Assembly (NCBI GenBank): GCA_049303835.1 | Contig: JBAQNN010000004.1 | Span: 2,784 to 66,783, forward strand | Direction of reading: 5' to 3' | Source: Minisyncoccia bacterium | GTDB lineage: Bacteria > Patescibacteriota > Minisyncoccia > Phycocordibacterales > UBA9973 | DNA length: 64,000 bases | Part shown: one piece after another, positions 1,775 through 64,000 of the stretch | Layout: each line of letters opens with the position of its first letter | Numbering within the stretch: the first letter of the stretch is position 1 | Made by a program: the position numbers and the translations under genes | The notes under the pieces: generated by a model | The model's database searches: none | What the model was told of the DNA's origin: nothing | Seen by the model: the letters and a program-made list of their open reading frames with translations, nothing else

Positions 1775-1920
1775 AAAACAAAAAATTCCTGGTAATGCAG
1801 GAAATATAAAGACCAATTATCTTTCCCGTTTGGGTTGGAGTTAGCACCCGTTCGAGAGATATTCTCAGGGTTGCTGTGGGGTCACCGAGCCAATTCTCTA
1901 CCACCACTCTTGATACTTAT
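1775..1920 (-). promoter_or_regulatory. SAM-I (S-box) riboswitch in the metK leader, with terminator hairpin
   Basis: Minus-strand sequence ..TATCAAGAGTGGTGGTAGAGAATTGGCTCGGTGACCCCACAGCAACC...GGTGCTAACTCC.. matches the S-box consensus. It is followed by hairpin TTCCTGcattacCAGGAA plus a T-run 10 nt before the metK ATG. Confidence 0.8.
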
Positions 1921-3046: not shown

Positions 3047-4216
3047 ATGCCAAATTTATTAAATTCACAACTTACAAAAAAGCAGGCTGAAGTGTTTGGT
3101 TACTTGGAGAAATTTCAGCAAAAAGAAAAATATTCCCCTGCCCTGAAAAATGTGGCAGACCATTTTGATGTTTCCGTACCCACCATTTTTCAACACGTAG
3201 ATTATTTAGAAAGAAAGGGATATCTAGTGAAAGAAAAAGGAGTAAAGTACTCTATTCGATTATTAAAAAAGCTGAGTGATATTGCTCTGGTTTTTCCCCA
3301 AGAAGAAGTTCAATCTGAGATTGAAACAACAAAATACAAAAAATTACCTTTAAATAAAATTATATTGGGCGATGCACTCGTTGAGTTAAAAAAACTTCCT
3401 AGCGAATCCTGCGACGTAATTGTAATTGACCCCCCTTACAACATTGGAAAGGATTTCGGTAATAATATTGATAAAAGAGAAATGGGAGAATATGTTTCTT
3501 GGTGCAAGGAGTGGATCAACCAGTGTATCCGAGTCATGAAACCAAATGGAACGATGTTTATTTATGGTTTCAGCGAAATATTGGCATATCTTTCAGTTGA
3601 AATCCCAATAAACAAAAGATGGCTCATCTGGCACTATACAAATAAAAATGTAGCTTCATTGCATTTTTGGCAAAGGAGTCACGAGTCCATAATCTGTGCT
3701 TGGAAGGAAAAGCCTGTTTTTAATCGTGATGAGGTGCGAGAGCCTTACACAGAAGGATTTTTAAATGGCGCAGCAGGAAAAACTAGAAAAGGTACAATCG
3801 GTAGATTCAGTTCAAGCGGAAAAGAGACAACCTATAATGCCCACGCAGGTGGTGCCCTCCCCCGAGATGTAATTAAAATACCAGCTTTGGCTGGTGGAGC
3901 GGGAATGAATGAAAGATGGTTTATGTGTAAAACCTGTAAAAATATTTTTGCGCCTAGAGAATTGAAAAACCATGTAGATCATGAGATTGAAAAACATCCA
4001 ACTCAAAAACCTTTTGAATTATCAAAAAAACTAATTTTATCTGCCACTCCTAAAAAGGATGGTGTAATTTTAGTACCATTTGTCGGTACTGGTTCAGAAT
4101 GTGCCGCGGCAAAAGCACTGGGGCAAAATTATATTGGTTTCGAAATAAATCCTGATTATGTAAAAATGGCAGAAAAATATATAGCTTCAGTAGAAGTTAC
4201 ATCAAGGTTATTTTGA
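3047..4216 (+). CDS. Site-specific DNA methyltransferase (beta-class N6A/N4C, DPPY) with N-terminal LexA-like wHTH and internal CxxC Zn-finger insertion
   Basis: DPPYN motif IV precedes the FVGTGSE motif I (beta-class order). The N-terminus resembles the LexA DNA-binding domain. CKTCKN...H...H insertion. ATG at 3047. Confidence 0.8.
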   Translation: MPNLLNSQLTKKQAEVFGYLEKFQQKEKYSPALKNVADHFDVSVPTIFQHVDYLERKGYLVKEKGVKYSIRLLKKLSDIALVFPQEEVQSEIETTKYKKLPLNKIILGDALVELKKLPSESCDVIVIDPPYNIGKDFGNNIDKREMGEYVSWCKEWINQCIRVMKPNGTMFIYGFSEILAYLSVEIPINKRWLIWHYTNKNVASLHFWQRSHESIICAWKEKPVFNRDEVREPYTEGFLNGAAGKTRKGTIGRFSSSGKETTYNAHAGGALPRDVIKIPALAGGAGMNERWFMCKTCKNIFAPRELKNHVDHEIEKHPTQKPFELSKKLILSATPKKDGVILVPFVGTGSECAAAKALGQNYIGFEINPDYVKMAEKYIASVEVTSRLF

Positions 4217-4903
4217 GTCAATTGCTTTCTTATTTTTTAAAAAAACATAGGGAGTAAAAACAACAAAGCCATTTGGAAATCTTTCTAGTTCTTTATTGTC
4301 TATGAATCTTTTATATGGGAGTTTGTATTCACCGTCCTTTTTTCTTGGATTATCAAAATATTCACTACTTGGAACTTCGTAATTAATATCAATGAATTCG
4401 CCATCTATTTGTTTTTTCACTCCCCCCTTCCCACGTCTCACTTCTCCACTAAATGATTTCTTTTTTACTTGATAGTTTAAAGTTTTTCCTTTGTATTTAA
4501 CTTGAAAATCAGCTCCCTGATGGTCCAACTCGCCTGACATCATTACTGAACCATCTCCAAAAACTGATTCAGCAACATAACCAGCATGGATTTGGGTAAT
4601 AATACTTGCCCAGGTACGATAAATTCTTGCGGGAAGCCCACGGTAATAGCAATCTTTACACATTGTTATTTTTTGTCGAAAAGATTCAATTTCAGTTTTT
4701 TGCGAATTTAAATACGCTTCGTAAAAGTCTTCAAAAGTTAAAAACTTTTTTTGATTCCAATACACTTCATAAAGCATATTGATAGCCTGAACCTCTTTCG
4801 GTAAATCCATTTCCACAATTTTAATAGGCCTGAATTTTTCGCGATAACTTGTCAGATCAACCGCTTTCAAAAAAGCATTAAATTTTTCCAAATTTTTCAT
4901 CAT
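4208..4903 (-). CDS. Putative Type II restriction endonuclease partner (candidate PD-(D/E)xK: GELD...FQVK)
   Basis: Convergent with the MTase, overlapping it by 9 bp. No recognisable housekeeping homology. Candidate D...QxK catalytic motif. Confidence 0.35.
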   Translation of the reverse strand: MMKNLEKFNAFLKAVDLTSYREKFRPIKIVEMDLPKEVQAINMLYEVYWNQKKFLTFEDFYEAYLNSQKTEIESFRQKITMCKDCYYRGLPARIYRTWASIITQIHAGYVAESVFGDGSVMMSGELDHQGADFQVKYKGKTLNYQVKKKSFSGEVRRGKGGVKKQIDGEFIDINYEVPSSEYFDNPRKKDGEYKLPYKRFIDNKELERFPNGFVVFTPYVFLKNKKAIDSK

Positions 4904-8014: not shown

Positions 8015-8980
8015 CTATATTATATCACATTTTAACTTGAGCTCCTCTATATCTGACGCAGTCAGGGTCTGTTCATTACCTTGATTGAAACTATACATGA
8101 CGGCCTTGGGGTCTTCTACGTGCCCCAGCCCAAGCGCATGGCCGAGCTCGTGTGCTAACACTCTGACCAATTTATCTCTGTTGCTAAATTCATAAATATC
8201 TATCTGCCTACTTAAGCCTTCTTCTATATAGACACCCTCCTCAAACGATTCTCCGCGAGAAGCACCGATAGTATTGTATTTTTCCACCACCAAGTTGAGG
8301 GTAGCAGCCAGACGATTCAAAACCACTACCATGGAATTTATCTCCTCCACCATTTCGTTAATATTTTTTTGTAATGCCTGCAATTTGGATACCTCTCTAT
8401 CTAGTGCAACTCTCTCATCCTCCAGTTTTTCATATTCTTCAGCTGGAGCTCCTCCTCTCTTGTTCCAATATCGTACTTGTTCTTCATAAACCTTCTGCCT
8501 TTTATTGAAACTCTCTACCCGTGCGTCATAATCAATCTTCGCCAGATCAAATTTCTTTTTTAAAATATCCAGTTTGGTCCGAAGCATATCGTACGAAGCA
8601 CGGTTGTCTTTGACGACGATGCCTAAACTGGCTAGTTTGCTTGTGGCTTGTTGCCTGTAATCATAAATTAAATTTATTTTTAAAGTATTAGAAGCGGAGC
8701 TGGTCGGCTCATAAGTAAAAAGTTCCACCCCGGCAGATTTTTCCCAAATGGCTTCCGCGTCGGAAAGAGCGCTCAAAAAATACGTTTTAGAAATATTAAA
8801 TTCTTTGTCAAAAGTATTGAGAACATATGCTATGGGCTCTTCGCAGGGTGCTTTAGAAAAAAGATATAGCTTTGCATTGTTCCAAACGGGCAAAAGTCGT
8901 GCGGCTAAAACATCTCTGTATTGATATATCAACACCATCGCCACAACAATTAATATTATATTTAGTAAAAATCTTTTCAT
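8015..8980 (-). CDS. Membrane-anchored metzincin-type Zn metalloprotease (HExxHxxGxxH with Met-turn) and coiled-coil region
   Basis: LAHELGHALGLGHVEDPKAVMY near the C-terminus. True start taken at MKRFLL (ATG 8978-8980). The track ORF extends spuriously into the GC island. Confidence 0.6.
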   Translation of the reverse strand: MKRFLLNIILIVVAMVLIYQYRDVLAARLLPVWNNAKLYLFSKAPCEEPIAYVLNTFDKEFNISKTYFLSALSDAEAIWEKSAGVELFTYEPTSSASNTLKINLIYDYRQQATSKLASLGIVVKDNRASYDMLRTKLDILKKKFDLAKIDYDARVESFNKRQKVYEEQVRYWNKRGGAPAEEYEKLEDERVALDREVSKLQALQKNINEMVEEINSMVVVLNRLAATLNLVVEKYNTIGASRGESFEEGVYIEEGLSRQIDIYEFSNRDKLVRVLAHELGHALGLGHVEDPKAVMYSFNQGNEQTLTASDIEELKLKCDII

Positions 8981-9033
8981 GATATGTGGCGTTAAGCTCG
9001 TAGTTATATGAAAATCATACCATAAACAATCAT

Positions 9034-9067
9034 GCGCCGGCACGAGTTTAAGTACTCGTGCCGGCGC
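9034..9067 (-). terminator. GC-rich 13-bp stem hairpin, candidate intrinsic terminator of the sORF
   Basis: GCGCCGGCACGAG-tttaagta-CTCGTGCCGGCGC; T-rich run follows on the minus strand. Confidence 0.45.
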
Positions 9068-9078
9068 GATTCCCTTCG

Positions 9079-9309
9079 CTAACAGAAATGTGGGCCATCG
9101 GCCCGAACGCCGTGCCACGGCTCGCTGGTCCTTGCGGCCACTTCCCTGGCTTTCTCTTCGGTCTCCCCGAAGACGGCCGTGCAGGCATGCCTGCCTACTC
9201 CCTTCGTCACGTAAAAGGCCGCCCATCCCATAGCAGTGACCTTGGTCACAACTCCGCCTTCCTCCAAGATGGACGCCTCTTCCGGAGAAAACTCCAATTT
9301 TTCGCTCAT
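9079..9309 (-). CDS. 76-aa sORF of unknown function in a GC-rich (~58% GC by eye) cassette
   Basis: Strong SD (GGAAGGAG-6nt-ATG) and downstream terminator hairpin. Codon usage is strongly GC-biased relative to neighbours. Confidence 0.45.
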   Translation of the reverse strand: MSEKLEFSPEEASILEEGGVVTKVTAMGWAAFYVTKGVGRHACTAVFGETEEKAREVAARTSEPWHGVRADGPHFC

Positions 9310-9353
9310 GTGCTACTCCTTCCGCTTAATATTATACTCTTTATTTATTGAAA

Positions 9354-10064
9354 TTAAATATTTTGATTTATCTCGGATCTAATAAAATAAAGTCTTCGGT
9401 GTTCATTGTCAAAACGAAGACTATCTTGCCCTCCATCTCTTTTTGGACCGTTTACTTCCCGAGGATTAAAACCCAAAACCTGTTTTACGTTTTCTTTTAG
9501 TATTTCAACCGATAAAAGATAATCATTCATTTTTTTTCTTTGTTCTGTTAATTCTACCGGAGTCAATTTACCAAGAGATCCTCCGACAATCACGGCATCG
9601 GTCGTCCCCGATTCACATTTTTCTTTCATTTTTAAAAGCTGTGTTTTCAGATCATCCAAAAATGGATATATCCTTCTGACTTGCTCTTTCTTGGCCTCAT
9701 CCGCAAAAACATATTCTTTCATAAAAGAAATCATCCCCGGGGGTTGATGAGTCAAAAAAGAAATATTTTTCTTGGTTTCTTTGTCTAGACCCGAAACAAT
9801 CAAACTAGTACACCTGTTTAATCCTTCCGTAAATTTATCCTTATCATCTATCGCTGAGATGACATAAGTAGTAGGCCCGGCAGTAAAAAACTCTCCTTTC
9901 TGTCCGGATTGATATACCCCATTTTTCCAATCTACCCCAAAAGAGACAGCAGATTCCAAATCTTGTTTGGAAAAATCTTCCGGAGTACCGATGCAAACCA
10001 CGATAGGTTTTACCCCTTCTTTTAGATGCTCTCGCGGATTAGGAAATTTAAATTTTTCTTCCAT
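9354..10064 (-). CDS. Hypothetical protein
   Basis: 236-aa ORF with no recognised motif. Confidence 0.4.
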   Translation of the reverse strand: MEEKFKFPNPREHLKEGVKPIVVCIGTPEDFSKQDLESAVSFGVDWKNGVYQSGQKGEFFTAGPTTYVISAIDDKDKFTEGLNRCTSLIVSGLDKETKKNISFLTHQPPGMISFMKEYVFADEAKKEQVRRIYPFLDDLKTQLLKMKEKCESGTTDAVIVGGSLGKLTPVELTEQRKKMNDYLLSVEILKENVKQVLGFNPREVNGPKRDGGQDSLRFDNEHRRLYFIRSEINQNI

Positions 10065-10066
10065 TT

Positions 10067-11062
10067 TTATTTCTCGCTTAGAGTATAGCGATCCAAGATG
10101 GCTTCAAAGATGAGCGGAGCGACGATAGTGGCATCCGACTCAATCACAAACATTGGAGTTTCTTTCGTTAGTTTGTCCCAAGTAATTTTTTCGTTTGGGG
10201 TAGCTCCGGAATACGAACCATATGAAGTGGTACTGTCGGAAATCTGACAGAAATATCCCCAAGGGCGAACAGGTTTTTTCAAGTCATATTTAATGCTTGG
10301 CACTACGCAAATCGGGAAATCGCCGGAAATTCCTCCACCAATCTGGAAAAACCCTAAGCCTGGACCATCTTTGGCAAGCTCTGTGTATCTGTCGTAGAGA
10401 TACATCATATACTCTACCCCCGTCTTCATCACACTAGGTTTTACCTCGCCTGCTTTGCAATATCCAGCAAAAATATTTCCGAGCGTAGAGTCTTCCCAAC
10501 CCGGAACCACGATAGGTAAATTTTTCTTCGCTGCTTCCAAAAGCCAACAGTGTTCGGGATTGCCTTCGTATTTACCATGGAGTTCGTCCGAGAGAAGGAT
10601 TTGATAAAAATATTCATGCGGGAAATATCGCTCCCCCTTTGCCTCTGCGTCCTTCCAATGTTTTAAAATAATCGGCTCCATCACGCGAAAAGCTTCTTCT
10701 TCCGGGATAGAAGTATCGGTCACTCGCCTCTCGCCTCTGTTTAAGATAGCTTCATCGTCTTCTTTGGTAAAATATCGGTAATCGGGATAATCTTTGTAAC
10801 TATCGTGCGCTACTAGGCGGAAGATTGACTCTTCTAAATTTGCCCCGGTACAAGACACGGCATGAATCTTGCCTTCTCTTATCATCGCTGCCAAAGTGAT
10901 ACCCATTTGTGCGGAAGACATGGCACCCCCCATAGCGAGGAGCATCTTGCCTCCCTCGTCTAAGTGTTTCTTGTAAGCGAGCGTCGCATCCTTCATCGCT
11001 CGAGCGTTAAAGTTATGGAATAATTTCTGAAACAAACCCAAAATTGTAGTTTCGTTTTTCAT
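10067..11062 (-). CDS. Deoxyhypusine synthase-like protein
   Basis: DHS family signatures (SCTGANLEE, QIGGG...). Start taken at MKNETT. Confidence 0.75.
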   Translation of the reverse strand: MKNETTILGLFQKLFHNFNARAMKDATLAYKKHLDEGGKMLLAMGGAMSSAQMGITLAAMIREGKIHAVSCTGANLEESIFRLVAHDSYKDYPDYRYFTKEDDEAILNRGERRVTDTSIPEEEAFRVMEPIILKHWKDAEAKGERYFPHEYFYQILLSDELHGKYEGNPEHCWLLEAAKKNLPIVVPGWEDSTLGNIFAGYCKAGEVKPSVMKTGVEYMMYLYDRYTELAKDGPGLGFFQIGGGISGDFPICVVPSIKYDLKKPVRPWGYFCQISDSTTSYGSYSGATPNEKITWDKLTKETPMFVIESDATIVAPLIFEAILDRYTLSEK

Positions 11063-16833: not shown

Positions 16834-16879
16834 ATAAGGTAAGTATATACTAAGTAAGTTCCTTTTTAAAAATATAGAA

Positions 16880-17040
16880 ATGATTCGGGGAAACTGGTGA
16901 AAATCCAGTACAGTGCCGCTACGGTAAATCCTAATAAAAAAATAGGATAAGTCCGACTACCAATCATTTTATGTGTCCCGAGCAGGATAACCCTTTCTTT
17001 TTTGAAGGCCCACAAATTCTGCTCACAACAGAATTTTTTT
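16880..17040 (+). promoter_or_regulatory. Cobalamin (AdoCbl) riboswitch with terminator expression platform
   Basis: GGGGAAACTGGTGAAAATCCAGTACAGTGCCGCTACGGTAAATCC matches the cobalamin riboswitch core. A B12-box-like AAGTCCGACTACC follows. Hairpin AATTCTGctcacaaCAGAATT plus T7 lies immediately before the ATG at 17041. Confidence 0.65.
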
Positions 17041-37610: not shown

Positions 37611-38060
37611 AATTATTTATTGCTTACTTTCTTTTTATTAAATCGTTGGATTAATAATGTAATTGCTAAAGCAATAAAAACCATCGGTACATTTACAAAA
37701 CTAGGAAACAAAATTGCTAGAGCTGCTCCGATCCCAAAAACTATTAATAGTTGCTTATTTTCTGGTTTCATTTCTTATTTTCTTTTGCGCTTAGTAATAA
37801 GCTACCCGAGATAAGACGCAAAAAGCCCATCACGGGTAGTAGCTTGCGCCACTCATATAGGTTTCCCTATACGGCCAGTAACGACGACCCCATGACGGGT
37901 TCTTTATGCGTTACTGGACTTGTGACCATACCCTAAACGAATTTAGGGGTTAGGTCGCCTTATTAACTTGTAATGAGATTATACCTCCTTTTGGAAGGCT
38001 TGTGTAGCTTAGCTTCCTTTCAAACTAATGCGTAGTGGAGTTATCCACACTTATAATATT

Positions 38061-58481: not shown

Positions 58482-61400
58482 ATGAGAATTTCATTTTTAC
58501 AAATAAAAAATACTTCTCTCTCTAGAAAAATATTTGTTTCTATTTTTGTTTTTCTCTCTGCTCTTTCCCCTCTCTTTGTCCTGGAAGCTGCCATCAACAA
58601 ACAAATAAATTATCAGGGCAAACTAACCACCAGTGCCGGTGTCGCTGTGGCAAACGGAACTTATGTCATGGAATTCAAACTTTACACCGTGCCTACTTTA
58701 GGCACGGCGATCTGGACGGAAACGAGAACGGGGGCAAACGAAGTACAAGTGACAAATGGACTCTTCAGTGTGATGTTAGGAGAAGTCACCGCCCTTACTG
58801 GAGTAGATTTTAATCAAACACTTTACTTGGGAGTAAAGATAGAGAGTGATGCGGAAATGACCCCCAGAAAAAAATTAGGCACTGTTCCTTCTGCTGTCGT
58901 CGCTGAAGGTGCTTTAAATATTATCGGTGGTGGAGCTGGCACTATCCCCTATCAATCTGCCGCCAATACTACGGCCTTCTCGGCCGTGGGTATAGCAGGA
59001 CAAGCCTTAATTTCTGGAAACACAGGCTCTCCTACTTGGTTTGCTCCTACTTTAGGCTCGGTACTCTTTGCTGGTGCCAATGGAATCCTATCCCAAGACA
59101 ATGCAAACTTTTTCTGGGACGACACGACCAACAGACTCGGCATCGGCACGACGAGTCCGACAGAAAAACTGACAGTAGCTGGCGGTAATATTGTTCTAAG
59201 GGAAAATGATGATGGTTTTGATGCTTTACGCTTAGACGCTGGTGCTGCTTCTGCAGCTATTCGAGGATACAGTAACGGTGTTCAAACCATAGAAATTCAC
59301 ACCAATACAGGTAGTACTTCATATTTTAACGCAGGCAACGTAGGCATCGGGACGACGACACCGACAGTAGGAAAACTACAACTAAACCAAACTACCGACT
59401 CTAGCTCTGGGGGTATTACAGTTACAGATTCTTCTGTGACAAACTCGCTTCGTTTTTGGGCAAATGCCACCCAAGGAAGAATAGATGTAGCTTCCAGCGG
59501 AGTCGGTCCACTTATTTTAAACTCTGGTGGTGGCAAAGTCGGTATCGGTAACACTTCCCCTCTTGAACTCCTCACTCTCGGAACTGCAGGCACGACAGCA
59601 GGAACACTTTCACTAGCAGGAGCAACTTCTGGTAAAGCAACCATTGTAGTAAATGCAGTAGCGGGAACTCCTACTCTAACCTTGCCTACGACTACCGGAA
59701 CTTTAGCATTGGTGTCAGATTTAACCACAGGCTATGTCCCCTATACCGGAGCTACTACAGATGTAGATTTAGGAATCTATCAACTAAGCACTGGAAATTT
59801 GATAGCGGGTTCAGCAGAAATTTCAGGGCTTACTTCTGGTAGGATACCATACGCTTCAACTGGAGGACTTCTCGTAGACTCTACTGGTCTGATATATAAT
59901 GGCACAACTTTTGGCACAGGAGTAATTTCTGTTACCGATAACAGGTTGACTACTGTTGATACTCTAGCAGATTCCTCTGGAACACTTTTGAGTACTACAT
60001 ACAATACTCTCTCCACAGTGAGCGGAGCATATTTGGATTTTGTTTATGATACTACTGCCAACAAAAAAGTCTCTGCTGGGGTAACCGATACAGGTAGATT
60101 GGTTGGGCAGAGATTTAATGTTTTAAGAAACTATACAACCACCGCAGATAATGGAACACTCTCTCTCTTGCAAGGTATGGTGTTCGGTTATGGACATTTC
60201 AATTCTGATTTGACCGCAACCCCAACTACTACGACTGTTACAGGATTGGCTCTAGCTGGAAATAATATTACAGGAGCAATCGGGACTCTTACAGATTTAG
60301 ACATATCTTATTCGGGTGGTGGAACTGTAACTACTCATACAGGAGTAAACATCGGAGCATTAACAGGCACAACGGTGCGTGGTATGCGTTCACTTGTTGC
60401 ATCTGCAACTAACGCTTGGAACTTATACATTGATGGAACTGCTCAGAATTATTTTGCTGGGAATGTAGGTATTGGGACGACGACGCCAGCTGCAAAATTG
60501 CAAGTGACTGATACTTATAACATGTTTATCGCTGGGTCTGGTTTAGGCACAGGAGCAAATTTCTATTCAGATAATAGTGTGTATTACGGAACAACCGGAA
60601 ACAACAGTGCCAACTTCTTTACTAACAACCTACCAAGAATGAAAATCACAAACGATGGTCTAGTCGGAATTGGGACAACGAGCCCAGGGTATATGTTAGA
60701 TGTAAGTAATGCCGGTTCTCTTGGCCTTACAAATAAAACTGCCGCCTTAACAAATTCTCAAAGTTTGCCTGGTTCTTTAAATTTTAGTGGCTATGGATGG
60801 AGAACTGCTGTAGGTAGTGTGCCAATTGATGGACAACTTTTATTCAGCGGAGCTTATAATGGTGGAACAGGCACAGTAGAGCCTTATTTATCTTTTCTTT
60901 TGCATGGTTCAGGAGCATCAGATACTACCCTCTCTGAAAAAATGAGAATTACAAATAGTGGCAATGTCGGTATAAATGCAATCGCCCCAGGTGCTCCTTT
61001 GCAAATAGGTACTGGAACATCGGGTGGAACTATACTATACAGAGGTTTAATACTAAGTGGTGGTTGGTCAAGCACACCGCAGAGACAACAAAATCTTATA
61101 ACCTTTAAATCTACAAACGCTGTTAATGCTGACCCATTTAATGATACAACAGGAGAAAGTGCAAAAAACTTTCACATAGGTTTGCTTTCGGATACTGCTT
61201 TTATGAATACTACTCGTAGGTTTAGTATTATAGAACAAGGAGCCGAGAGATTTACTGTCCAAAGTGGCGGCAATGTGGGCATCGGGACCACGGCACCGAC
61301 TCAACTATTAGAAGTCTACGGAACCTCGGGAAGTACAACTTTAACTCTTAGGGACTACAAAGGTTCAGCTGGTGCAACGGCAAACATGCTTTTTGGTTTA

Positions 61401-64000
61401 TCTGATGGAGTCTTCGTATCATCTTCGGCTGCTAAAATTCAAGCAAGGCCAGTCACTGGCAGTACTTCTGCTCTAGCCTTCAGCACATATCATGGAGGGT
61501 TAACAGAAGATATGACAATAAACGCTGGCAACGTCGGAATCGGGACCACGGCACCTATCGGCTTGCTGAATATTTCTTCTTCTACCATCCCAAATCCTAT
61601 ATTTAATATTACTGCTCCTGCCTCCACAAATGGACAAGGAGGAATGGTTAACTTCTCTCATATAGGAACCGAATCTTCTCCTCGTTCTCAAATAAAAAGT
61701 CTACTAGAAAACATCTCAACGAATTATCAAACCTCTCTAACATTTTCCACCACAAAATCAACAAATGTTCTTACTGAGGCAATGCGTATTGATAGCACTG
61801 GCAATGTGGGCATCGGGACGACGGCACCAATCACCAAATTACAGGTCAATTCAACAACAATTGGCCAAGGGATTGTATCCGTATCTTCACCCGCAAGTGC
61901 CTTTGACCAAGTAGTGTCAAAGTATCAATTCTATAATTCATTTTCTCCTTGGGACATTGGTTGGGGAACCCAAACTTTGGCTGAAGTAACGACACAAACA
62001 GGATCCACTAGTCATGCTGTCGGTAATCTAAGTTTTAGTGTCAAAAAAGCTACCACAGATGCTAGTGTTACTGAGATTATGAGAATTACAAATAGTGGTA
62101 ATGTAGGCATCGGGACGACAAATCCAGGAGCGTTATTGGATGTATATGGTAGTGATAATGGCGTAATTAGAATATCTGGGTTAGGAGCATCAAACAGAGA
62201 CACAGTGAGTCAATTAGACTTTTATAATCATTACGCCCTTTCAGTAGTTACTACTGGACAAATAAAGTCCATGCGAGGATTGAATGATCACAAAGCAGGA
62301 CAATTAGGATTTTTCACTTCTGCCGCATCTACTGGAACTTTGACTGAAAGAATGACGATAAATGAAGCTGGGAATGTTGGAATTGGAACTGTTACTCCAG
62401 AAGCAAAACTTGATATGTATGGAGGATATTTATATATAAGTGCTGGGGCGGGTGCAGTAAACAATAGTGTCCAACCATCCGGAATAAAATTAGGAAGCGA
62501 TGTATATGCCAGAGCTGCTGTCATCTCTAACTACCGAGGCGCTTCCTCTGGAGATTCCGGTATAGATTTTCAGACATATGGCTCAGCCGTAGCCGTAAAT
62601 GCCATGAGAATTTTAGGTAATGGTAATGTGGGGATAGGGACGCCAGCGCCGGGAGATAAGTTGGATGTTATCGGAAAAGGGTCTTTTACTATAGCCCAGT
62701 CTGCTGGAATCAACGAGGCTCTGAAGATAGTTGATAGTGCGAACGGTCTCGTAGACAGGGGTGTGAAAATGGGACTATACGTAGCGAGTGGTGTGGGAGC
62801 AAATAGGCTCGGAGCAGAGATAAGTGCTGCCAACGAGGCAAGCCTTACGAGTTCATATCTGACATTCAATACGGAAAATAGTGGCGTTGTCGCAGAGAAA
62901 GTAAGGATAACAGGTGCAGGCAACGTCGGAATAGGGACAACGACGCCCAGTGACCAACTTGAGGTTGCTGGTCTTTCTGGGGCATATGGAAGAGCATTAG
63001 TATCTGATGGAATGGGGGCAGAACGTCGTGGTTTAATTTTAGCAAGTGCGTCGGCGGCAGTAGGTTATGCCAGAATTGATTCATATAAATATGGAACAGG
63101 TGCTGGGTATCTTCCTTTAGTCTTAAACTCTGGTGGTGGTAACGTCGGCATCGGGACGACGACGCCGACAGCGGGGAAACTTCAAGTTGATGGTAATATC
63201 ATATCTTTGTCTGCAACAAATGGTATTGTTACTGCTCGTAGCACGGGAGCAGATGGCAATAACGCATATCTTCAAGTTATCGGCGGAACATCAGGGGCAG
63301 ATTGGTTGATAGGTACAAATAGGTCTGCACTCGCGGGAAGTGCAGAAAATTTATTCTTCTATAAAAACGTCGCTGGAACAGGGACCACGGGGACGAAAAT
63401 GATGATTAGTGCTGATGGCAACGTGGGCATTGGGACGACGACGCCCAATGCAAATCTAGAATTATACCAGACAAGTAATACCGGAGCCGTGCCTCATCTT
63501 GGTCCAGCCTTGCGCTTATCAAATGGTTTTGCTGATAACGGTACTTTTACTTGGAATGTAAACAGTGATTATGCGGGAACTGTTGATTTTTACACAGCAG
63601 ACACATCATCGGGAGGGGCAAATGTTATAAGTTTTATTAGACCATATGTTCAAACGATTAGTGGCGTCGGATGGGATATGGCTTTTGGGACATCAACAAC
63701 TAATGCTACGGCTACTGAAAAATTCAGAATAACAGGTGCAGGCAACGTCGGTATCGGGACGACTACACCAGGATCAACTCTTCCGACAGGGTTTACTGCA
63801 GGGACAGTGTTAGAGATTCTTGATGCGGGCACGAATGAAGATACTGGACTGTTCTTAAGAAGGTCAGCTTCCTTGGGTCTTGATATTTGGCAAGATAGTT
63901 CAGTGGGAACTGCTTATATTGATAATCGTTATGCCAATGCTGCAGGAAATATTTACTTCCGAACACAAACCAATGGCACTCCTGTCAATGCGATGACAAT
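58482..64000 (+). CDS. Giant repeat surface protein (more than 1,839 aa, 3'-truncated by window end) with ~14 GNVGIGTTTP-type repeats
   Basis: Hand translation is open from ATG 58482 to the window end. Absent from the ORF track because no stop lies in the window. Signal peptide present. Repeats recur at ~85-100 aa intervals. Confidence 0.7.
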   Translation, partial: MRISFLQIKNTSLSRKIFVSIFVFLSALSPLFVLEAAINKQINYQGKLTTSAGVAVANGTYVMEFKLYTVPTLGTAIWTETRTGANEVQVTNGLFSVMLGEVTALTGVDFNQTLYLGVKIESDAEMTPRKKLGTVPSAVVAEGALNIIGGGAGTIPYQSAANTTAFSAVGIAGQALISGNTGSPTWFAPTLGSVLFAGANGILSQDNANFFWDDTTNRLGIGTTSPTEKLTVAGGNIVLRENDDGFDALRLDAGAASAAIRGYSNGVQTIEIHTNTGSTSYFNAGNVGIGTTTPTVGKLQLNQTTDSSSGGITVTDSSVTNSLRFWANATQGRIDVASSGVGPLILNSGGGKVGIGNTSPLELLTLGTAGTTAGTLSLAGATSGKATIVVNAVAGTPTLTLPTTTGTLALVSDLTTGYVPYTGATTDVDLGIYQLSTGNLIAGSAEISGLTSGRIPYASTGGLLVDSTGLIYNGTTFGTGVISVTDNRLTTVDTLADSSGTLLSTTYNTLSTVSGAYLDFVYDTTANKKVSAGVTDTGRLVGQRFNVLRNYTTTADNGTLSLLQGMVFGYGHFNSDLTATPTTTTVTGLALAGNNITGAIGTLTDLDISYSGGGTVTTHTGVNIGALTGTTVRGMRSLVASATNAWNLYIDGTAQNYFAGNVGIGTTTPAAKLQVTDTYNMFIAGSGLGTGANFYSDNSVYYGTTGNNSANFFTNNLPRMKITNDGLVGIGTTSPGYMLDVSNAGSLGLTNKTAALTNSQSLPGSLNFSGYGWRTAVGSVPIDGQLLFSGAYNGGTGTVEPYLSFLLHGSGASDTTLSEKMRITNSGNVGINAIAPGAPLQIGTGTSGGTILYRGLILSGGWSSTPQRQQNLITFKSTNAVNADPFNDTTGESAKNFHIGLLSDTAFMNTTRRFSIIEQGAERFTVQSGGNVGIGTTAPTQLLEVYGTSGSTTLTLRDYKGSAGATANMLFGLSDGVFVSSSAAKIQARPVTGSTSALAFSTYHGGLTEDMTINAGNVGIGTTAPIGLLNISSSTIPNPIFNITAPASTNGQGGMVNFSHIGTESSPRSQIKSLLENISTNYQTSLTFSTTKSTNVLTEAMRIDSTGNVGIGTTAPITKLQVNSTTIGQGIVSVSSPASAFDQVVSKYQFYNSFSPWDIGWGTQTLAEVTTQTGSTSHAVGNLSFSVKKATTDASVTEIMRITNSGNVGIGTTNPGALLDVYGSDNGVIRISGLGASNRDTVSQLDFYNHYALSVVTTGQIKSMRGLNDHKAGQLGFFTSAASTGTLTERMTINEAGNVGIGTVTPEAKLDMYGGYLYISAGAGAVNNSVQPSGIKLGSDVYARAAVISNYRGASSGDSGIDFQTYGSAVAVNAMRILGNGNVGIGTPAPGDKLDVIGKGSFTIAQSAGINEALKIVDSANGLVDRGVKMGLYVASGVGANRLGAEISAANEASLTSSYLTFNTENSGVVAEKVRITGAGNVGIGTTTPSDQLEVAGLSGAYGRALVSDGMGAERRGLILASASAAVGYARIDSYKYGTGAGYLPLVLNSGGGNVGIGTTTPTAGKLQVDGNIISLSATNGIVTARSTGADGNNAYLQVIGGTSGADWLIGTNRSALAGSAENLFFYKNVAGTGTTGTKMMISADGNVGIGTTTPNANLELYQTSNTGAVPHLGPALRLSNGFADNGTFTWNVNSDYAGTVDFYTADTSSGGANVISFIRPYVQTISGVGWDMAFGTSTTNATATEKFRITGAGNVGIGTTTPGSTLPTGFTAGTVLEILDAGTNEDTGLFLRRSASLGLDIWQDSSVGTAYIDNRYANAAGNIYFRTQTNGTPVNAMT

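Follow-up and report, generated by a model that had tools for sequence, protein, structure and literature searches.

Within a 64-kb stretch of DNA from a Minisyncoccia bacterium (assembly GCA_049303835.1, contig JBAQNN010000004.1; hereafter the window), a short island of high GC content stands out sharply from its AT-rich surroundings. We interpret this island as a complete, independently expressed cassette for a lineage-restricted 8-kDa cytoplasmic protein of 76 amino acids (aa), designated P0001, that has been vertically inherited in a small subclade of Nomurabacteria-like bacteria of the candidate phyla radiation (CPR), a reading to which we assign a probability of about 0.7. Wherever DNA of the locus could be retrieved, the open reading frame (ORF), the -10 box, the Shine-Dalgarno (SD) sequence and the hairpin of the terminator have been conserved. 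Additionally, the cassette always lies between the genes for a deoxyhypusine-synthase-like (DS) and a 236-aa protein and the promoter of an M10 metallopeptidase gene.

The GC maximum of all 292-nucleotide (nt) segments of the window coincides exactly with positions 9034..9325 (60.3%). The mean over these segments is 0.384, with a standard deviation (sd) of 0.051, and the next-best segment elsewhere reaches 0.534. The 300-nt flanks of the island have GC contents of 0.347 and 0.330; 200-nt segments at 9000-9299 range from 0.575 to 0.615 and those on both sides from 0.33 to 0.41, and the 300-nt bin 9001-9300 (0.563) is the top bin of the whole window. The sharp boundaries and AT-rich flanks described by a first-pass annotation of this DNA were thus recovered in the computed values (0.603 vs. 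0.33-0.35 at the flanks). Its estimate of about 58% GC for the island was about right (0.595 for the span 9030..9320), and only its figure in the mid-30s for the genome was slightly low (38.4%). A search of the window for further copies of the island or of a hairpin arm returned only the match of the two arms with each other.

The island corresponds to one minus-strand transcription unit, composed of a TATAAT box, a 21-nt leader, a 76-codon ORF, a GC-rich hairpin and a U-rich tail (Table 1). The sequence (A/G)GTATAAT is found at the matching position in all orthologous loci, and the SD core GGAG(G) is kept in all orthologues, 5-10 nt before the ATG. The hairpin, the tail of which reads ATGATTGTTT, has the features of an intrinsic (Rho-independent) terminator and is present in all orthologues. 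Its loop varies in sequence and in length (6 to 9 nt), and its pairing is preserved in loci L014 and L019 via two compensatory double changes (G-C to A-U and C-G to U-A), a combination more in keeping with a terminator that acts as RNA than with a protein-bound operator. A hairpin terminator had been recognized in the first-pass annotation, which described it as 13 bp and 'all-GC-rich'; the stem has 14 bp, of which 11 are G-C. On the far side of the terminator, the block TTGTTTATGGTATGATTTTCATATAA, which contains the box TGGTATGAT, is conserved in all orthologues. The box itself is nearly invariant there and is followed by the peptidase ATG 9 nt further on, which indicates a promoter of the leaderless type. 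Altogether, the signals found in the window and in the orthologues agree with the initial description of a sharply delimited cassette with its own SD and terminator. With the promoter, the unit is self-contained (promoter, SD, ORF and terminator), and its composition and translation signal are foreign to the surroundings.

Table 1. Predicted features of the cassette and its immediate neighbors (window coordinates).
Feature	Position	Strand	Remarks
GC island, putative transcript (~292 nt)	9034..9325	-	Runs from just past the -10 box through the terminator stem; GC 0.603
-10 hexamer TATAAT, context GAGTATAAT	9331..9336	-	Ends 21 nt before the ATG; putative promoter element
Shine-Dalgarno sequence AAGGAG	9316..9321	-	6 nt (TAGCAC) before the ATG
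Protein-coding gene P0001, 76 aa	9079..9309	-	ORF list, homologues, ratio of nonsynonymous to synonymous change (dN/dS)
GC-rich hairpin, 14 bp (11 G-C), 6-nt loop; putative intrinsic-terminator stem	9034..9067	-	Starts 11 nt beyond the stop codon
U-rich tail of the terminator, AUGAUUGUUU	9024..9033	-	Conserved in orthologues
Extended -10-like box TGGTATGAT of the M10 peptidase gene	9014..9022	-	3' boundary of the cassette; putative function
Antisense 97-aa ORF, compositional artefact	9058..9351	+	Stops in L001 and L014; substitutions follow the sense frame
Membrane-anchored matrixin-like (M10) metallopeptidase, downstream neighbor	8015..8983	-	Pfam PF00413, E 5.6e-10; NCBI 'matrixin family metalloprotease'
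236-aa hypothetical protein, upstream neighbor	9354..10064	-	No Pfam or PADLOC match

The small gene has a family of its own. Six homologous clusters of the 76-aa product were identified (59-100% identity, 75-81 aa), all of them metagenomic, and a profile search of 1.84 billion representatives contributed just two more, P0007, of the same family, and the distant P0008 (E 5e-5), an orthologue that occupies the shared genomic slot. This brings the family to eight members with 42-100% identity, so that the label of ORFan does not hold in the strict sense. Scans of genomes, metagenomes and viral contigs for a wider family returned known lineages only. The homologues come from metagenomes of Nomurabacteria-like CPR bacteria (Minisyncoccia), with relatives labelled Candidatus Nomurabacteria or Paceibacterota, and the gene is restricted to this one small group of uncultured groundwater bacteria.

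The translation of the ORF is exactly that quoted in the first-pass annotation, and its coding status was assessed in a codon alignment of five distinct DNA orthologues including the window. In the five DNA versions all indels are multiples of three, and the proportions of nonsynonymous and synonymous differences were 0.07-0.27 (pN) vs. 0.38-0.82 (pS), with dN/dS values of 0.01-0.19. Differences between the window and locus L001 are dominated by third codon positions (12/8/42 for the three positions). In-frame indels, third-position changes and low dN/dS together identify a real protein gene, and purifying selection acts on the encoded protein. The 97-aa ORF on the opposite strand had been dismissed as an artefact, rightly, as it is open through composition and the codon pattern follows the other strand; no antisense or overlapping frame is conserved across the orthologues. 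DNA identity between the window and L001 is 72% in the small gene and 80-90% in the flanking genes, and the small gene is moderately fast-evolving, not hypervariable. Hypermutation or diversifying selection was considered and rejected, since its pS (0.72-0.82) is barely above that of the peptidase gene (0.66-0.80) and dN is similar.

Although some pipelines do call the small gene, it is apparently missing from the NCBI annotation of this metagenome-assembled genome (MAG), because P0001 is known from Logan only and its neighbors carry MFZ accessions. The peptidase frame is open through the GC island, which creates a spurious 403-aa ORF (8015-9226, minus strand), and metagenome gene callers have over-extended the peptidase likewise in other loci, to 354-362 aa overlapping the small gene. 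One copy of an L007-type gene, from the GTDB-representative contig CAZXCD010000002.1 of a MAG named 'uncultured Candidatus Saccharibacteria', contains a run of N (L016:4090-4100) that presumably reflects masking by the collection.

All homologues with retrievable DNA or a gene map share one chromosomal slot, immediately upstream of the M10 metallopeptidase gene, and on their own upstream side lies the DS gene, with or without an intervening hypothetical gene of 236-265 aa; these loci were drawn from ENA, JGI, Logan and NCBI. The 236-aa protein shows 67-83% aa identity between loci and is present in the L001-type, L015 and L019-type loci and absent from the L007-type loci and L014. The wider context is that of a housekeeping chromosome, with genes for RNase J, SBP_bac_5, SecG, the DS-like protein, the M10 peptidase, DUF167 and SPFH.

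This recurrence bears directly on whether the island is an assembly chimera or a contaminating GC-rich fragment, as the abrupt shift of composition at both edges might suggest and as, for the chimera, the first-pass annotation had proposed. The Logan assembly of run SRR28062879 (L015, 2703 nt) is identical to window positions 8063..10765, with 0 mismatches across both junctions, and the arrangement recurs in at least five diverged lineages from independent samples and assemblers (ENA, JGI, Logan and NCBI assemblies). Additionally, the island is bordered directly by a promoter of host type on one side and by the conserved promoter of the peptidase on the other. An artefact of assembly is effectively refuted already.

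The alternative offered at that time, a moron-like gene, fared little better. Like phage morons, the cassette has its own putative promoter and terminator, deviant GC content (0.603 vs. 0.384; 0.68 vs. 0.35 at third codon positions, GC3) and sharp edges. Unlike them, it is a small gene outside any prophage or mobile context, syntenic and vertically inherited in the subclade, and it has no viral relatives. Searches with tblastn gave E = 1 at best against phages and nothing against plasmids or viral contigs, and PHROGs gave no consistent match. With the housekeeping context and phage, plasmid and viral-contig collections that hold no relative, the moron-like label could not be retained.

The translation signal of the small gene is as distinctive as its composition. 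The duplex of its SD with the anti-SD was calculated at -10.8 kcal/mol, compared to a mean of -1.5 (sd 2.6) over 61 gene starts of the window, and the small gene alone (1/61) lies at or below -8 kcal/mol. The remaining SD-like motifs followed by a start codon are all found inside longer ORFs. A strong AAGGAG at 6-nt spacing, noted earlier as unusual for this neighborhood, is therefore the only strong SD among the 61 starts. In the same survey 60 of the 61 starts lack an SD, and at 18 a -10-like (TATAAT-like) box ends 4-12 nt before the start codon, which indicates leaderless mRNAs; examples of starts in this leaderless or SD-less survey are 4903, 5686, 11062, 22327, 26131, 27931, 27972, 32688 and 33034.

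The GC excess of the gene was traced to two sources, about half to amino-acid composition and about half to the choice of G/C-ending codons. The protein is rich in Glu (14.5%), Ala (13.2%), Gly (10.5%), Val (10.5%) and Arg and contains little Ile, Leu, Lys and Asp. With the codon usage of the window, such a protein would be encoded at 50.2% GC with a GC3 of 0.376, whereas the gene actually has 59.6% GC and a GC3 of 0.684 (z = 5.9), a level that none of 20,000 simulations attained. For comparison, ORFs of the window have a mean GC3 of 0.351 (sd 0.072, maximum 0.58). The orthologous genes are likewise GC-rich (GC 0.53-0.59, GC3 0.53-0.69) in loci of 0.35-0.44 GC. At the 14 four-fold degenerate codons conserved in five orthologues, not one (0/14) has the same third base throughout, and yet the GC content at these sites (GC4) is 0.50-0.86 vs. 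0.37 in host genes. Synonymous G/C has thus been renewed rather than inherited, which rules out un-ameliorated foreign DNA, and a GC3 that stays high despite synonymous turnover implies selection. Since island and predicted transcript have the same extent, untranslated regions (UTRs) included, such selection would act on the RNA, for stability or structure.

It could be asked whether a structured RNA is the functional product, alone or next to the protein, with the ORF being secondary. Dual-function small RNA/mRNAs of this kind include SgrS/SgrT, RNAIII/hld and SR1/SR1P, and they resemble the cassette in being short, highly structured, independently transcribed and terminated RNAs that encode a small protein. 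GC islands in AT-rich genomes are typically noncoding RNAs (ncRNAs), and this one spans the transcript including its UTRs. The whole region folds better than shuffled sequences on both strands (z = -4.9 and -4.6), several local hairpins are retained in all orthologues via wobble changes, and native coding sequences folded against synonymous-codon shuffles gave negative z values in five of five sequences (-0.4 to -1.7). However, the whole-region scores are inflated by the perfect terminator hairpin, and none of the synonymous-shuffle tests is individually significant. The RNAalifold consensus has a covariation term of +0.62, about 0 and no better than expected outside the terminator, and convincing compensatory pairs are confined to the terminator; the tests for selection on RNA structure are suggestive at most. 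In Rfam 15, the region 8850-9450 gave nothing at the gathering score and nothing better than E 0.55, and ARAGORN found no tmRNA or tRNA in the island. The codon periodicity (12/8/42) and a dN/dS well below 1 point to a selected protein, and, in contrast to the dual-function RNAs, the cassette gives no sign of a base-pairing function or of covariation at the RNA level, and its coding region fills the whole transcript. A functional RNA as the principal or additional product is therefore unlikely.

Where the cassette came from is a separate matter, and an old horizontal acquisition, or a new insertion, of a promoter-SD-ORF-terminator unit from a GC-richer, SD-using donor is a possible, although not the favored, account of its origin. 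It would be compatible with the cassette reading set out above and would make both the GC content and the SD donor traits. Composition and SD are foreign to the host. Relatives with an M10 peptidase 57-63% identical retain the RNase J/SBP_bac_5/SecG neighborhood but lack a small gene ahead of the peptidase, and in relatives with a DS protein at least 90% identical (e.g., Nomurabacteria GW2011_GWB1_40_7) DS is followed by a PIF1 helicase. The 236-aa gene on the upstream side likewise occurs in some loci and is missing from others. A mosaic junction also falls precisely on the 3' boundary of the cassette: in one sample (ERZ27249449), L014 (675-857) and L020 share 92-94% identity over the stretch that runs from the hairpin into the peptidase gene, whereas upstream of the hairpin the small-gene alleles share 47% nt identity and the upstream genes differ (DS vs. 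a 265-aa hypothetical). This represents either a recombination junction at the 3' edge of the cassette or a chimeric 857-nt contig.

Against such an insertion, no donor or homologue was found outside the subclade amongst 5.8 billion clusters and 1.84 billion representatives, nor were phage, plasmid or viral relatives. No integrase, repeat or tRNA lies at the cassette boundaries, and the promoter is of host type (GAGTATAAT). Synonymous sites have turned over fully with GC still high, and donor composition alone can therefore not explain the present GC content. Every subclade member, down to 42% identity, has the small gene in this slot, and more distant relatives with the shared neighborhood lack it; either the subclade's ancestor gained the cassette by insertion, or other lineages lost it. 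Of the initial suggestion of horizontal acquisition, a recent event is contradicted by orthologues at 42-88% identity in a shared slot with saturated synonymous sites, and what survives is a possible old insertion.

P0001 is predicted to be an acidic 8-kDa protein (pI 5.3; calculated range 5.3-5.9) with no signal peptide, and its tryptic peptides include VTAMGWAAFYVTK and ADGPHFC. Two AlphaFold2 runs, with 6 and 8 sequences, agreed on a layout of helix 9-16, strands 20-25, 28-34/37 and 40/42-48 and helix 51-60, with a predicted local distance difference test (pLDDT) score of 67-69; the tail from residue 62/63 to 76 is of low confidence (pLDDT <50). In the six close members, G28-W-A-A31, R40-H41-x-C43 and G48-x-T-E-E-x-A-R55 are invariant, as is the tail G67-x-R-A-D-G-x-H-F75 with its terminal C or H (RADG[PS]HF[CH]). 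Because the tail is invariant yet seemingly disordered and closes with a metal-ligand residue, it may serve for docking, perhaps through a metal site shared with H41/C43.

As the first-pass annotation had surmised, the protein matches no known family. Pfam, NCBIfam and PHROGs searches with the eight members gave scattered single-member matches only (E 0.018 or worse), PADLOC gave no match for the window protein, and a PDB profile search returned only an acid phosphatase at E 0.9. Foldseek found nothing significant in the PDB, where double-stranded RNA-binding domains (dsRBDs) and HPF/YfiA proteins recur at E of at least 0.4 and a template-modeling (TM) score of at most 0.44, and the best hit of a BFVD structural search had an E of 0.18. 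The dsRBD-like and HPF/YfiA folds, the best Foldseek neighbors, share the predicted alpha-beta-beta-beta-alpha order; the present protein is acidic, unlike RNA binders, and the similarity is non-significant. The G-E-T-E-E-x-A-R turn-helix resembles the 'GeT.eEA' motif of HicB (HicB-like/UPF0150). This candidate was rejected, as none of the eight members matched the domain in Pfam at E up to 10, the PDB profile search was negative and no HicA-like neighbor was seen.

The position of the gene directly upstream of the M10 peptidase in every recovered context, even where its own upstream neighbor differs, raises the question of whether it encodes a factor that acts in trans on this peptidase as an inhibitor or to keep it latent, with the invariant C-terminal H-F-C/H tail plugging the catalytic zinc like a cysteine switch on a separate protein. 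Small inhibitors are encoded beside bacterial metalloprotease genes, and inhibition by a zinc-chelating Cys or a terminal residue is a known mechanism; the tail of the small protein is invariant, disordered and ends in a zinc-ligand residue. The two genes are, however, split by the terminator and by a separate peptidase promoter, and an N-terminal membrane anchor, predicted from sequence, would place the catalytic domain outside the cell; the small protein lacks a signal peptide. Additionally, the peptidase family has >3000 members and is found in relatives without the small gene, and P0008 keeps the adjacency though its tail is absent. Such an inhibitor appears improbable.

Under the favored reading, that of an independently expressed protein cassette, the GC excess results from a composition rich in Ala, Gly, Glu, Val and Arg and poor in Ile, Leu, Lys and Asp together with G/C-ending codons. 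G/C may be selected at the RNA level, as the coincidence of island and transcript suggests, which would yield a compact, structured mRNA that resists nucleases and ends in a strong terminator. This mRNA would probably be translated by SD/anti-SD pairing, unlike its mostly leaderless, SD-less neighbors, and would thereby follow a translational regime of its own. With low confidence, we further propose that the protein has a small alpha-beta-beta-beta-alpha core and that its disordered but invariant C-terminal tail, G-x-R-A-D-G-P/S-H-F-C/H, docks on a partner, possibly via a metal to which the invariant R-H-x-C motif also contributes.

Several points weigh against this reading. Promoter, transcription start site, terminator and protein are all predictions. 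The SD census covers 64 kb of the genome, with the 3' end of the 16S rRNA outside its view, and the DNA sample is small (five distinct orthologues, six with L019, and 14 four-fold sites). The synonymous-shuffle and covariation results given above count on the same side, and GC-biased gene conversion at a recombination-prone junction could also hold GC3 high. P0008 lacks the C-terminal tail, and the structural model is of moderate confidence with no significant neighbor (best Foldseek E 0.18-0.6).

Among known systems, the closest parallel to the SD pattern is rpsU, encoding bS21, in Flavobacteriia, a single strong-SD gene in an SD-'blind' lineage that is autoregulated via anti-SD availability (PMC9976891, PMC13000453, PMC7797042). 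Both are small genes and the lone bearers of a strong, conserved SD. The present product differs in being acidic and in having no Pfam or NCBIfam similarity to bS21 or ribosomal proteins, and the host is a CPR bacterium that, in the 64 kb surveyed, is apparently leaderless rather than of the Bacteroidia type; the comparison is one of analogy, not of membership. Taken further, it would imply that an SD-dependent, GC-hardened mRNA in a leaderless or SD-less lineage reports free anti-SD, e.g., on a subpopulation of ribosomes or in a particular ribosome state, and that the product is a new ribosome-associated factor. This would be a second, independently evolved instance of the Flavobacterial rpsU logic, on an unrelated protein. 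The only recurring structural neighbors, HPF/YfiA hibernation factors and dsRBDs, point in this direction at non-significant scores, and we regard the idea as a long shot.

Small hypothetical genes of CPR bacteria and Patescibacteria offer a more general comparison, as the present gene likewise encodes a product of 76 aa with no detectable family, is confined to a narrow clade and was missed by annotation. Few of these, however, unite four conserved signals (here the -10 box, the sole SD of 61 starts, GC-rich codons and a strong terminator) and at the same time deviate by 4 sd from the genome in composition.

Further observations were made around the cassette. In the window, about 23 extra nt (CTACGAGCTTAACGCCACATATC) separate the -10-like box of the peptidase from its ATG (8984-9013, minus strand), compared to a distance within 9 nt in the orthologues, which suggests that the peptidase mRNA is leadered here and probably leaderless in the orthologues. 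RNAalifold also pairs the start-codon region CAUGAGCGA of the small gene (9285-9309, minus strand) with UUGUUUAUG just past the terminator (9023-9031) through 9 pairs, including 4 G-U. This pairing is kept in six of six sequences; both segments are conserved for other reasons and it may be coincidental. A gene for a TaqI-like restriction endonuclease (PF09573, E 1.5e-37) is located at 4208-4903 on the minus strand, and in L007 (5462-7323) a TaqI-like endonuclease with an adjoining N6/N4 methyltransferase lies a few genes downstream of the peptidase.

Elsewhere in the window, Rfam matches at gathering level were obtained for a LOOT RNA (37838-37956, minus strand, 89.9 bits), which forms a local GC bump of 0.443 vs. 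~0.30, for an S-adenosylmethionine (SAM, S-box) riboswitch (1814-1919, minus strand) and for an adenosylcobalamin (AdoCbl) riboswitch (16864-16995, plus strand). At 59130-63790 on the plus strand, at least 11 repeat copies are spaced 219-549 nt apart, with the core GGCAACGTCGGCATCGGGACGACGACGCC (G-N-V-G-I-G-T-T-x-P). These repeats (families D1, D2 and D5) lie in a large ORF that leaves the end of the window and probably encodes a repetitive surface protein.

The most immediate consequence of these results is a correction of annotation, as the public entry for this MAG apparently lacks a conserved small gene, and gene callers run the peptidase ORF on through the GC island. More generally, a GC island in an AT-rich genome is not necessarily an ncRNA or foreign DNA, and the synonymous G/C of one gene can stay far from genomic equilibrium through saturated divergence. 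A single SD-led gene can also persist in a genome that is otherwise leaderless and SD-less. Should the lone SD and the selected GC content indeed mark a special translational or RNA-stability regime, the importance of the gene would be raised, and a special translational circuit, if true, would bear on how start sites are chosen in CPR bacteria with reduced ribosomes.

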